Below, in pieces: positions 76-9,523 of a DNA stretch of 64,000 bases. Source of the DNA: Eledone cirrhosa (taxonomy: Eukaryota); NCBI GenBank assembly GCA_964016885.1, contig OZ024741.1:620001-684000 (forward strand), written 5' to 3'. Under the pieces are notes generated by a model that saw nothing but the letters and a program-made list of their open reading frames with translations, was not told the DNA's origin and did not search any database. Position 1 is the stretch's first letter. Each line of letters begins with the position of its first letter. The position numbers and the translations under genes were made by a program.

Positions 76-223
76 TGTATATATATATGTATGTATGTAT
101 ATATGTATGTATATGTATGTATATATATATGTATATATATATATGTATATATATGTATGTATGTATATGTATGTATATATATGTATATATATGTATGTAT
201 GTATATGTATGTATATATATATG

Positions 224-261
<38 letters not shown>

Positions 262-273
262 TATGTATGTATA
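76..273. repeat. (TA)n/(TATG)n microsatellite; similar tracts at 650-880, 1491-1514, 2138-2457, 3067-3106, 5299-5590, 7221-7320, 7944-8358, 8632-8690, 9308-9405
   Basis: Directly visible; source of the Y/I/C/M/V-rich spurious ORFs. Confidence 0.98.
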
Positions 274-650
274 TGACACACGACCGTGACTTCTGGCGTC
301 ACGCAGTAATACAGGGTACCCGACCTCCCATGGGTACATGCTGAAGCATATAAACAATATGCCCCCCCCCCCCCCCACCGCAAGGTGGTCGTGGAGGTGC
401 CACGGCAAAAAAGCACCCAGCCCACACTGTAAAGTGGACGTGTAGGCGCCACGAAAAAGCACCCAGCACTCACTGTAAATGAGGTTGGTGTTAGGAAGGG
501 CATCCAGCTGTAGAAATCAAGCCAGATCAGTTCCTGTATGAGCAAGGCATGGTCAGCCGACCAGACACTGCCCACAACAGGACAACCCGTCTAACCCATG
601 CTAGCGTGGAAGAACGGACGTAAAACGGTGATGATGATGATGATGATGAT
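272..650 (+). mobile_element. 5'-truncated RTE LINE 3' end with (GAT)n tail
   Basis: [17 protein letters not shown] resembles the C-terminus [17 protein letters not shown] of the RTE at 5590-6818; shared 3'UTR motif ggttggtgttaggaagggcatccagctgtagaaa; ends in gatgatgat. Confidence 0.8.
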
Positions 651-656
651 GTATGT

Positions 657-729
<73 letters not shown>

Positions 730-880
730 TATGTATGTATATATATATATGTATATATATATATGTATGTATATATATATATGTATGTATATATATATGT
801 ATGTATATATATATGTATGTATATATATATGTATGTATGTATATATATATGTATGTATATATATATGTATGTATATATAT

Positions 881-1490
881 GTCAGGTCACCAGTTGGTGC
901 TACTGGTAACATGTATCCCAGTACAACCTGTCTCATGGTCGGGTCGTTGGCGACTAAACTGGCAACCCCACCAAGGTTTCTTGGTGAGGAGGGTGACTTT
1001 GGACATCCTGCAGGACTAAAAACAAAACCTGTCAAAGGGCAAAGGAGCTCTTAAGAGTCAATGGCCATCCAAAATCACCGGGAGAGATGACCCCTTAGCC
1101 TTTGTCAAGGCAGAATTCTAGGAGAAGGAAAACTCTGATATAACACCTGCAACCCTGATGGTATCCAATGATGTTGACTTGTTCTTCTTTTTGGTAAATA
1201 TCATCTTGGTTAAGAGAGTGGGACTGGCTTTGTGCAGTGCCTTTGCTCACTATAAAAGCTTCACGGCACAGGCATTGCTTTATATCTGGAGATCTCTCTG
1301 CACTTGTCGTCACATGGTACCATGGGCCCTGCACTATGTGTCAGTAATTGTCACAAGTGTAGTGTTTGTACCAGAGTTTTCAAGTCGCTGGCTGGACTAA
1401 AAAGTCACACTCGTTCAGCGCATCGGTAGGGGTTCTCCTACATGGATATAAAGTAGTGGCCGTACTCGAAAACGAGTTGGCAGCCACCAT
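881..1490 (+). mobile_element. ~610-bp bipartite non-autonomous RTE derivative (SINE-like), copy 1
   Basis: Near-identical to 2458-3066 and 8698-9307; RTE 5'UTR-like motif ggagaaggaaaactctga; degenerate finger CSVCTRVFKSLAGLKSHTRSAH; 3' end tggccgtactcgaaaacgagttggcagccaccat resembles the RTE 3' end at 2104-2137. Confidence 0.8.
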
Positions 1491-1514
1491 GTATATATAT
1501 ATGTATGTATATAT

Positions 1515-5589: not shown

Positions 5590-7220
5590 TTGTCGACTTG
5601 GAGAAAGCCTTCGACAGAGTTCCCCGCTCCATTATCTGGTGGGCTCTTAGAAAACTAGGCGCTGACGAATGGCTTGTGAGGGCTATACAAGCCATGTATA
5701 AAGAAACAGTCAGCAAGGTTAGAATTAACAACGAATATAGTGAAGAGTTTAGCGTAAAAGTTGGCGTCCATCAGGGCTCTGTTCTCAGCCCCCTACTATT
5801 TATTATTGCCCTTCAGGCTATAACAGAGGAGTTCAAGACAGGCTGCCCATGGGAACTCCTATACGCAGACGACCTGACACTCATAGCGGAATCAATGGCC
5901 GAGCTAGAGAAGAAATTCCAAACATGGAAGCACGGCCTAGAGTCAAAAGGACTTAAAATTAACCTGGCTAAGACCAAAGTTCTAGTTTGTAGGAAAGAAA
6001 ACAAGGTGGCGATCCCTTCTGGGAAATGGTCGTGCTCGGTGTGTAGGAAAGGCGTAGGTAGAAACTCCATTTTATGTCCTAAATGCAAAGTATGGGTGCA
6101 TAAAAGATGTAGTGGGATCACAGGTAAGCTAACTAAGAACATAGATTTTACATGTGGCCGGTGTTCTGGTGCAATAAGTAGCAGCAAGTGCCCACAAAAT
6201 ACTAGCTCTTTCAATTGCGCAGAGGGTTCTATAGAAATAGTGGACAGCTTCCGTTACCTGGGCGATAAAATCAGCAGTGGGGGAGGGTGCTCTGAAAGTA
6301 CTGTAGCTAGAGTCAGAACTGGTTGGAAAAAGTTCAGAGAGCTTATACCACTATTAGCTGCTAAAGGGTTCTCCCTAAAAATGAAAGGCAGGTTGTACGA
6401 TGCCTGCATACGAACAGCAATGCTGCATGGCAGTGAGACCTGGGCATTGTGTGCAGAGGATATACGCAGACTAGAGAGGAACGAAGCTTGCATGCTCCGC
6501 TGGATGTGTAACAGTAATATACGTGAACAGCAAAGCATAAACGAACTAAGGAAAAAATTAGAGATAAGAGGGATCAGATGCTGTTTACTCGAGAGAAGGC
6601 TACGTTGGTATGGACACGTGATGCGCATGAAAGTCGATAGCTGTATAACAAAGTGCAGGGCAATAAAGATAGACGGTAGTCACGGAATAGGCAGACCTAG
6701 AAAAACCTGGGACGAGCTGATAAACTCCGACATCACACACTTACACCTCTCCAAGACAATGTCACTGGACCGAGACCTTTGGCGGTACTCAGTAACAGAG
6801 AAGACCCGCCTTACCTAAATATATAGTAAAACCTACTCCAGCCAGTAGGCATCTCTAACAAAATACACCCCGTCCCACCCCCCCCCCCCACCCCCACCCC
6901 ATCCACACCACCCCGTTCTATGTAAAGTTATGTTGGTGCCGCGCCATCCAGGCCGAAACAAATGAGATCGTGTAGGTGTCACGACAAAAAAACACACAGT
7001 CCACGCTGTAATGTGGCCGTGTAGGCAACACGGTAAAAACCTCCCAGACCCACACTGTAAATGTGGTTGGTGTTAAGAAGGGCATCCAACTGTAGAAAAC
7101 CTGCCAGACAGTCCTATGCGAGCAAGACAATCACTCTTGCTTCAAGTGGGACTACCCCCGTCCAAACCCATGCAAGCGTGGAACACGGACGTTAAACGTT
7201 GATGATGATTATGATGATGA
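5590..7220 (+). mobile_element. RTE-clade LINE, 5'-truncated, open RT (5590-6818) with inserted PHD-type finger; 3'UTR with (GAT)n tail
   Basis: [62 protein letters not shown]4HC3 module CSVC/CPKC/HKRC/CGRC. Confidence 0.93.
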
Positions 7221-7277
<57 letters not shown>

Positions 7278-7319
7278 GTATATGTATATATATATATATG
7301 TATATATATATGTATATAT

Positions 7320-7943
7320 GAGAGTATTGAAGTTTGCTTGAAGCATTGTGGAACAATAAGTAAATATCTTTAAGTCGTTTGGAAGCCTCGACAATGCAAA
7401 TGGGTAAATCTCCGGGTAACAAGGTCCGGTGGTGGAGAGAGAGATGTAAGTGGGTGTACGTTGAGATGCGTGGTGTGTATAAGATGTGTGAGATGTGTAG
7501 AATGGAGGGAAGAGTAAAAGGATAAAAATAAAAATAACAACACAAGAGAGAGTTACCAAGGGAGAGATTTAATAGTCCCTATATATTTCGGATTCACATC
7601 CATCAACTGGGGTTTTTTTCCGGGGTGGGGGAAAAGGTCTGTCGGACAAGTCCGGAAGGCGTCTTTTGCTGTTTGCTGATTTTTCCCCCACCCCGGAAAA
7701 AAAACCCCAGTTGATGGATGTGAATCCGAAATATATAGGGACTATTAAATCTCTCCCAAGGTAACTCTCTCTTGTGTTGTTATTTTTATTTTTATCCTTT
7801 TACTCTTCCCTCCATTCTACACATCTCACACATCTTATACACACCACGCATCTCAACGTACACCCACTTACATCTCTCTCTCCACCACCGGACCTTGTTA
7901 CCCGGAGATTTACCCATTTGCATTGTCGAGGCTTCCAAACGAC
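7320..7943. mobile_element. Inverted repeat (arms 7374-7635 / 7681-7943), probable Penelope-like pseudo-LTR remnant
   Basis: Arms are near-perfect reverse complements of ~262 bp with a 45-bp spacer; each carries a minimal hammerhead-like motif. The inverted repeat is certain; the Penelope assignment is inferred. Confidence 0.65.
7705..7740 (+). ncRNA. Minimal type I hammerhead-like motif with variant core (mirror copy at 7577-7612, minus)
   Basis: ccc-CAGTTGA-t-GGA tgtgaa TCC-GAAA-tatata-ggg: stem I, stem II, GAAA, palindromic stem III; core differs from CUGAUGA at two positions. Confidence 0.4.
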
Positions 7944-8358
7944 ATATATGTATATATATATATATATGTATATATGTATATATATATATGTATATGTGTA
8001 TGTATATATATGTGTATGTATATATATGTGTATGTATATATATGTATGTATGTATATATATGTATGTATGTATATATATATATGTATGTATATATATATG
8101 TATGTATATATATATGTATGTATATATATATATATATGTATGTATATATATATATGTATGTATATATATATATGTATGTATATATATATATGTATGTATA
8201 TATATATATGTGTATATATATATATATGTGTATATATATATGTTTATGTATGTGTATGTTTATGTATGTGTATGTATATATGTATGTGTATGTATATATA
8301 TATATGTATGTGTATGTATATATATATATGTATGTATATATATATGTATGTGTATGTA

Positions 8359-8631
8359 TGGTTAAGAGAGTGGGACTGGCTTTGTGCAGTGCCTTTGCTC
8401 ACTATAAAAGCTCTACGGCACAGGCGTTGCTTTATATCTTAAGATCTCTCTGCACTTGTCGTCACATGGTACCAACACTATGTGTCAATAATTGTCACAA
8501 GTGTAGTGTTTGTACCAGAGTTTTCAAGTCGCTGGCTGAACTAAAAAGTCACACTTGTTCAACGCATTGGTAGTTCTCCTACATGGATATAAAGTAGTGG
8601 CCGTACTCGAAAATGAGTTGGCAGCCACCAT
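8359..8631 (+). mobile_element. Bipartite RTE derivative, 5'-truncated copy 3
   Basis: Matches about 1206-1490 with more divergence and small deletions. Confidence 0.8.
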
Positions 8632-8697
8632 ATGTATGTGTATGTATGTATGTATGTATGTATATATATATGTATGTATATATATATATAAGTTTAT

Positions 8698-9307
8698 GTC
8701 AGGTCACCAGTTGGTGCTACTGGTAACATGTATCCCAGTACAACCTGTCTCATGGTCGGGTCGTTGGCGACTAAACTGGCAACCCCACCAAGGTTTCTTG
8801 GTGAGGAGGGTGACTTTGGACATCCTGTAGGACTAAAAACAAAACCTGTCAAAGGGCAAAGGAGCTCTTAAGAGTCAATGGCCATCCAAAATCACCGGGA
8901 GAGATGACCCCTTAGCCTTTGTCAAGGCAGAATTCTAGGAGAAGGAAAACTCTGATATAACACCTGCAACCCTGATGGTATCCAATGATGTTGACTTGTT
9001 CTTCTTTTTGGTAAATATCATCTTGGTTAAGAGAGTGGGACTGGCTTTGTGCAGTGCTTTTGCTCACTATAAAAGCTTCACGGCACAGGCATTGCTTTAT
9101 ATCTGGAGATCTCTCTGCACTTGTCCTCACATGGTACCATGGGCCCAGCACTATGTGTCAATAATTGTCACAAGTGTAGTGTTTGTACCAGAGTTTTCAA
9201 GTCGCTGGCTGGACTAAAATGTCACACTCGTTCAGCTCTTCGGTAGGGGTTCTCCTACATGGATATAAAGTAGTGGCCGTACTCGAAAACGAGTTGGCAG
9301 CCACCAT
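8698..9307 (+). mobile_element. Bipartite RTE derivative, copy 4
   Basis: Full-length match to 881-1490. Confidence 0.8.
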
Positions 9308-9523
9308 ATATATATGTATGTGTATGTATATATGCATGTATATATATATATATATATGTATGTGTATGTATATATGTATGTATATATATATATGTATGTA
9401 TATATGAGGAAAACTCCCCCCTCCTCATTCTTGCTTTCTTCTAATTCGTATTCCTAATTTTAAGCCTACCTTAACTCGCAACTATACAGCCACGCTATTC
9501 TCCATATATACATATATATATGT

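Follow-up and report, generated by a model that had tools for sequence, protein, structure and literature searches.

The question raised by this stretch of Eledone cirrhosa DNA (64 000 nt, positions 620 001–684 000 of contig OZ024741.1 in the 3.0-Gb assembly GCA_964016885.1; hereafter the window) is why retroelements of several families stand head to tail in one orientation near its start, parted by alternating TA/TATG tracts. In our reading, the array is a pile-up of independent insertions in one microsatellite, which was probably the older component, and its head-to-tail order probably comes from the protein of a long interspersed element (LINE) of RTE type, here named LA, reading the G strand of (TATG)n upstream of its cut. 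Coordinates are those of the window unless a locus label (Lnnn) is given.

Nine insertions lie between 274 and 9307. Their spacers are ten tracts of alternating A/G and T (76–9405, + strand, 28–420 bp each), remains of one polar TA/TATG microsatellite, which amount to 1807 bp and carry 228 G against 8 C on the + strand. All eight LINE-related insertions are on the + strand with such a tract on either side, and none lies within the unique sequence of another, as the sequence-only reading of this DNA had described. An upstream tract was found at 5.8% of random positions (3239 of 56 000 in 200 kb), so the array flanks are far above chance. The eight insertions represent four families, where three types had been counted before. 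Four are copies of NA1, a non-coding RTE-type element: three are full length (881–1490, 610 bp; 2459–3066; 8698–9307), and one is older and 5′-truncated (8360–8631, about 91% identical to other NA1 copies). Two are 5′-truncated copies of LA, one consisting of zinc fingers and 3′ untranslated region (UTR), with a protein part 100% identical to an intact copy (1516–2137), and the other encoding reverse transcriptase (RT) and three C2H2 fingers with three premature stops (3108–5298). The remaining two belong to the LINE families LB (5591–7221) and LC (274–650). The earlier count also missed the ninth insertion, a putative Penelope-like foldback without a single strand (7320–7943), and the array, which had been taken to start at 76, runs ∼4.9 kb further upstream, to about −4875.

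An intact LA open reading frame (ORF) of ∼1180 aa was found at 3 of 41 anchors in 40 loci (L112, L114 and L145). The 1181-aa ORF contains an N-terminal Exo_endo_phos domain and RVT_1, both by Pfam, and three C2H2 zinc fingers. There is no ORF1 in LA, as no ATG-initiated ORF longer than 69 aa was present within the 1.56-kb 5′ UTR. A single ORF with an apurinic/apyrimidinic-type endonuclease (APE) and RT is the arrangement of RTE clade LINEs. LA also has a short 3′ end, (CAT)1–3, without poly(A), and the target-site duplications (TSDs), measured on NA1, start with AT after a T. We take LA to be an RTE from this architecture and from motifs known to us, the homologues in our RT tree being unnamed; a PDB search gave L1 and R2 proteins as well as a single entry for an RNA-directed DNA polymerase, but nothing under the name RTE. 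The LA 3′ end is shared by a second short element, NA2, in which a segment of the LA 5′ UTR is joined to the LA 3′ end. NA2 fits the bipartite plan of non-autonomous RTEs, i.e. part of the 5′ UTR and the 3′ end of an autonomous LINE without an ORF. Judged by their sequences, LA, NA1 and NA2 likely form one RTE-type group. Exact pattern counts over the genome were 22 076 for the NA1 3′ end, 4981 for the LA 3′ end, 13 349 for LB and 5999 for LC. The first 1.2 kb of the intact LA 5′ UTR (L145:165–1727, 1.56 kb) differs from the head common to NA1 and NA2, which suggests a 5′ replacement. One LA copy (L114:900–1280) has an inverted 5′ segment behind a TATG tract, resembling a twin-priming inversion, and two NA2 insertions that lie 9 kb from each other (L062 and L063), nearly identical and sharing their flanks, represent a local duplication.

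The flanks of NA1 were tabulated outside the window locus. The sample comprised 97 3′ ends in 134 merged stretches, and 88 were used after copies at the window locus, copies below 90% identity, copies shorter than 100 bp and copies too close to an edge had been left out. The 5′ flank lay in a tract in 65 of the 88; the proportion was 34/42 for full-length and 31/46 for truncated copies, and in the latter the flank cannot belong to the element. A strong strand polarity was observed among the 65 tract flanks (60 G-type, 4 C-type and 1 tie). For LA, whose junctions were called from the ORF and 5′ UTR since its 3′ UTR is repeat-rich, 14 of 22 5′ flanks were in a tract, all G-type. A control SINE-like (short interspersed element-like) repeat had a tract flank in only 2 of 66 copies. 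Genome-wide, 4947 of 10 041 NA1 5′ ends stood directly behind a perfect (RT)7, compared with a background of 1.43%, and 870 behind (AY)7; setting apart the 678 ends behind pure (AT)7 gives 4269 G-type and 192 C-type ends, a bias of ∼22:1. The background in 399 440 positions was 2115 G-type, 2115 C-type and 3595 pure AT, and per available site G-type sites were used about 11 times more than pure TA. The proposal that an RTE family targets TA repeats is therefore sustained as regards targeting and has to be amended as regards the target, which is preferentially the G-containing strand of (TATG)n/(TG)n(TA)n. NA1 thus has most of its copies in one repeat and in one orientation, though with a looser preference than strict site specificity, and the LA group is likely a target-specific RTE sub-lineage, as far as sequence can tell.

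Orientation of neighbours was then considered for elements parted only by a tract (outside the window; the pairs are in part not independent of each other). It was non-random within LA/NA1/NA2, with 40 pairs facing the same way and 2 opposite ways. Between LA/NA1/NA2 and LB/LC the figures were 10 same and 12 opposite, and among LB/LC themselves 10:6. Of the truncated LB and LC copies, 8/15 and 7/16, respectively, were in tracts; these flanks were G-type in 2, C-type in 7 and neutral in 6. G-strand polarity is thus found in LA/NA1/NA2 only; the GAT-tailed LINEs LB and LC do not have it. LB, LC and the Penelope-like elements may be regarded as co-tenants that would favour TA tracts in either orientation, and the + orientation of LB and LC in this array is likely due to chance. 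The array itself is one by-product, among many, of what is likely a strand-specific (TATG)n preference.

Relatives of LA were sought in metagenomes, where 80 loci were kept, with ends read in 17 and counted in 18. Among near relatives with a 3′ end, 10 of 11 continue as CAT(GTAT)n and the eleventh stops at the contig edge after one imperfect unit. Five near relatives begin in TATG (L255, L256, L257, L260 and L267); three more distant ones (30–37%) have no such tract. The eight relatives compared in an identity table are 52–56% identical to LA at the protein level and 55–76% among themselves, and their contigs probably represent multicopy elements collapsed into a consensus during assembly. An RT tree (62 regions, with 50 of 120 homologues subsampled and no named reference) placed LA with the near relatives and most of the multi-finger proteins (support 0.96), separate from the one-finger RTEs (0.995). 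These data lead us to a broader and more tentative proposal, to which we give slightly less than an even chance: a widespread, unrecognised RTE sub-lineage with three C-terminal C2H2 fingers would use (TATG)n as a strand-specific target in several unrelated hosts, its protein reading the DNA upstream, and this would make RTE a third APE clade with site-specific members and produce polar arrays genome-wide.

The mechanism that we envisage builds on what is observed, namely the flanks, their polarity, TSDs that start at the last AT, copies whose intact ORF encodes endonuclease, RT and three C2H2 fingers, and flanks of the same kind in relatives distant from LA. The endonuclease would nick the C-containing strand opposite a top-strand T|AT step, with a preference for GT|AT; reverse transcription would be primed with an overlap of about 2 nt at the terminal AT, and an 8–14 bp duplication would result. 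NA1 and NA2 would be mobilised in trans through the common 3′ end. Each insertion would split the tract and leave target on both sides, so that later copies would land beside, and not inside, earlier ones.

What sets the orientation may be looked for on either side of the insertion. For 60 further copies, drawn from the first 100 in the list of 678 with a pure (AT)7 upstream, the first break upstream of that (AT)7 was GT in 38, AC in 8 and other in 14 (background 96:93:285); the first break downstream, in the 55 of them with a 3′ end, was GT in 24, AC in 15 and other in 16 (P = 0.2). Furthermore, in NA1 copies whose first 12 nt downstream contain no G, the 5′ flank was still G-type in 13 of 15. 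As polarity persists where the downstream 12 nt offer an RNA tail no G to pair with, these observations point to an orientation that follows the upstream DNA, read by the protein. Such a read-out fits the published model of RTE insertion, with upstream binding and a cut at T|A, in so far as the accessible parts of the two papers describe it (PMC6007223, PMC13295347). The best surviving alternative, which we nevertheless consider unlikely, is that polarity is guided by RNA: read-through into the downstream (GUAU)n of the donor would give a tail that pairs with the nicked (ATAC)n strand and fixes both target and orientation, and the endonuclease would need only a TA step. Pairing of this kind has been proposed for RTE 3′ repeats in general (PMC6007223, in the portion available); GT continues 50 of 87 NA1 3′ junctions, and the constant target of relatives would be explained without a conserved protein feature. 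Yet the upstream polarity was kept when the primer side lacked G, polarity was stronger upstream (38:8) than downstream (24:15), and no donor tail was present between element and TSD in the 17 resolved cases described below, in a search that allowed 0–2 extra bases.

A much less probable alternative is that the element itself synthesises a (GTAT/AT)n tail on which the next copy lands, and that the array is thus self-built. The sequence-only reading had offered such a synthesised tail as one option. Non-periodic TSDs of at least 8 bp, mostly 8–14 bp, were found in 17 of 88 NA1 copies (200 shuffles: mean 5.3, maximum 12). All 17 begin at the terminal AT of the element, and the preceding two bases are GT in 9, AT in 7 and TT in 1. 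Median tract lengths are 61.5 bp on the 5′ side and 47.5 bp on the 3′ side (P = 0.26), and the two tracts flanking an insertion are correlated in their G content (rho = 0.45, n = 37). As the TSDs start at the terminal AT and the tract lengths on the two sides do not differ, the repeat tract likely pre-exists the insertion. The tail model could draw on the fact that RTEs are known progenitors of microsatellites (PMC2887409, seen in part) and on the 22 of 74 upstream tracts that lie directly behind a family member, in a biased sample; yet the DNA before these tracts is unrelated in 46 cases (a GAT tail accounts for 4 and an edge for 2). In addition, a tract was present at the 5′ side only and at the 3′ side only in 16 NA1 copies each, the 3′ tract was shorter than 12 bp in 5 of 88 copies, and the intrinsic tail is just (CAT)1–3. 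Together with the truncated copies that have an upstream tract, these results do not support a synthesised tail. A weaker self-feeding loop does exist. Tracts within the LA 3′ UTR are themselves polar for G (660 G : 34 C over 19 copies), a further point for the tail model, and later insertions were found in 6 of 27 such UTRs: one NA1 on the same strand, two R4-like elements and one LB on the opposite strand, and two unassigned insertions. The loop accordingly amounts to a same-strand NA1 in 1 of 27 UTRs, and nothing shows that the array grows in one direction, as had been suggested.

Marginally less credible still is a passive sink, in which insertion is wide and copies are retained at microsatellites, or the tracts expand later. 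Many unrelated repeats of this genome do sit in TA tracts, and the truncated LB and LC copies do so without G polarity. A sink leaves the 22:1 strand polarity unexplained, however, and it agrees poorly with the low tract frequency of the control repeat and with the same flank in relatives from other samples.

The array copies are independent insertions and not products of tandem duplication, because equally close or closer NA1 copies lie elsewhere and the two LA copies have distinct sequences and truncation points. Among themselves, the three full NA1 copies of the window are 97.7–98.7% alike; in an alignment of 35 copies, each of them has a copy elsewhere at 4, 9 and 8 differences, respectively, whereas its neighbours in the window are at 8–13. 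Raw reads from three restriction-site-associated DNA sequencing runs of one study show TATG beyond both NA1 ends and head-to-tail joints with TATG spacers; of the 15 joints shown, a single one, at a 3′ end, was with the opposite strand. Almost no weight can be given to the array being a local tandem duplication or an artefact of assembly. The read support concerns NA1 joint types in general, but each full NA1 copy has an equally close or closer copy elsewhere, the two LA copies are 3.4% apart and truncated at different points, five families alternate along the array and the same junction types occur in raw reads.

Several observations weigh against protein-directed insertion into a pre-existing tract. 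The loci sampled are mostly from the first 52 Mb of a single contig and were picked around family matches. The tract test failed for 23 of 88 NA1 and 8 of 22 LA 5′ flanks, some of these being boundary errors, and half of the genome-wide NA1 5′ ends are not behind a perfect (RT)7. No TSD could be resolved in 71 of 88 NA1 copies, and the test for shared irregular 8-mers across the insertion gave a modest result (14/64; shuffles: mean 6.1, maximum 15). No empty, pre-insertion allele was seen at L135:4700–5900 in four runs, in which the flanks had been skipped or had no coverage. Over its 5′ part, NA1 resembles the LA 5′ UTR at only about 70%, and the driver of NA1 may be an unseen sister LINE rather than LA. 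The LA zinc fingers match RNA-binding-type Pfam models, below the cut-off, and a role for them as DNA reader is neither supported nor excluded. Finally, seven relatives with upstream sequence (L251–L254, L258, L261 and L262) have no TATG at the contig 5′ end, where the element start may not have been reached.

How does the LA group compare with known systems? Waldo, Mino, Kibi, Koshi and Dong are microsatellite-specific non-LTR (long terminal repeat) elements, and they belong to R1, Tx1, R4 or NeSL-related groups, whereas LA has RTE architecture, a one-strand tetranucleotide target and a looser specificity. Target-specific R1 and Tx1 LINEs have two ORFs, including a gag-like ORF1; LA behaves similarly but has a single ORF, so it is not a member of these groups. 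Among APE clades, Tx1 and R1 are the only ones credited with site-specific LINEs in the accessible text of PMC6007223. With RTE clade LINEs and their ‘Tn-TA’ signature (Nishiyama and Ohshima 2018, PMC6007223; Nakatsuka and Ohshima 2026, PMC13295347), LA shares a single APE and RT ORF, a short 3′ repeat, TSDs with A after T and an influence of upstream DNA; as far as those texts could be consulted, Tn-TA is a weak, dispersed preference (a few T ∼10 nt upstream), whereas about three quarters of the LA group is inside a microsatellite with a 22:1 strand bias. Togen, a (TG)n element, resembles the LA group in inserting in a simple repeat, with target on both sides and tandem stacking (PMC4640811, partial text).

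The SaTar arrays of guayule and rice (Valdes Franco et al. 2018, PMC5907723) have the same architecture, being non-nested modular arrays of unrelated elements joined by (TA)n. According to the portion of that paper at hand, from which the term ‘orientation’ is absent, SaTars are plant DNA transposons, Mu-like and non-autonomous; the tenants of the present array are retroelements, one family of which is polar. The members of the present array encode or derive from RT elements and not from Mu-like DNA transposons with terminal inverted repeats. The bipartite non-autonomous RTEs Bov-A, RTESINE and WALLSI3 (Kojima 2018, PMC5786205) follow the same plan as NA2 and NA1; the available part of that account does not mention microsatellite targeting, and a direct NA1 parent was not found. 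RTE-2_OV of Octopus vulgaris (Petrosino et al. 2022, PMC9115989) is built like LA, with an ORF of 1109 aa against 1181 aa and, in the sections seen, no stated target preference. Identity of LA with RTE-2_OV was rejected on the basis of five published primers, which mismatch LA at 3–7 of 20 positions, and the two are different families; a closer octopus relative, or a remark on flanks, may be present in the supplements of that study. No paper on RTE targeting of (TATG)n was found in the literature searched, which excluded Repbase entries and most subscription papers. RTE-1, in development as a gene-insertion tool, is listed with random integration in a 2026 review (PMC13708176, seen in part). 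An RTE occurring in nature with intact ORFs and a preference for one strand of a widespread non-coding repeat would open a standing question to test, namely whether the site is chosen by the endonuclease, the zinc fingers or the RNA tail, and would suggest a semi-targeted writer. It would also account for the way in which genomes rich in microsatellites come to contain long polar arrays that may be taken for tandem duplications.

The co-tenants of the array are of other kinds. LB and LC are both 5′-truncated here, end in (GAT)n tails and carry RVT_1 with an internal PHD finger (5592–6818 for LB; L221). LC is 77% identical to LB, and LA and LB proteins are only 24% identical; it is on this RVT_1 with PHD and this distance from LA, read from truncated copies, that RTE membership of LB and LC has to be judged. 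The segment at 274–650 was considered as a SINE and rejected, as all 30 fetched copies continue upstream into LINE coding sequence; it is a LINE end (LC). A GAT-tailed relative of LB/LC lies outside the array, ∼120 bp past its end, on the − strand (9523–9949). The foldback at 7320–7943, a 94% inverted repeat with 2472 pattern matches, would be a Penelope-like pseudo-LTR: at 6 of 20 other loci the repeat borders on the end of an ORF in which a GIY-YIG-like motif was recognised by eye, and a (TA)n bias of Penelope-like elements has been published (PMC8557442, accessible part). Rfam scans gave no ribozyme and no hammerhead, only sub-threshold microRNA-like matches on repeats and hairpins. Upstream of the window, the extension of the array holds a GIY-YIG-like 3′ fragment of a family other than that of the foldback (Pfam E = 0.0065, below the cut-off), another LB copy and a 739-bp inserted piece ending at base 75. 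The part of this piece inside the window (1–75) may, by its motif, be a Helitron-like 3′ end; the last ∼190 bp of the 739-bp piece recur at 25900–26095 (90%).

Elsewhere in the window, a near-complete LINE ORF on the + strand (35659–39119; endonuclease, RT and, in a second frame, zf-RVT) is L1/Tx1-like by domain order, and an RT fragment with DUF6451, 30% identical to LA (39891–41117), stands directly behind a (TA)n tract (39907–39942). Fragments resembling a nuclease end, presumably of R4/Dong type by a motif known to us, occur at ∼20661–20874, 22545–22695 and 29329–29533 and in L072 and L078; in two loci an R4/Dong-like element is found, with opposite strand, within the (TAA)n portion of the LA 3′ UTR. 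Several other short repeats, some of them foldbacks, are flanked by pure (TA)n in random stretches (L151–L170). An open frame on the − strand (33378–34337) has a weak EamA match below the Pfam cut-off. Tandem repeats comprise a 60-bp unit (10360–10934; 9.6 copies, 96%), a degenerate 20-bp G-rich repeat (16271–17646; 68 copies) and a 38-bp satellite (46824–64000; 457 copies, 94% matches) that continues up to the window end.

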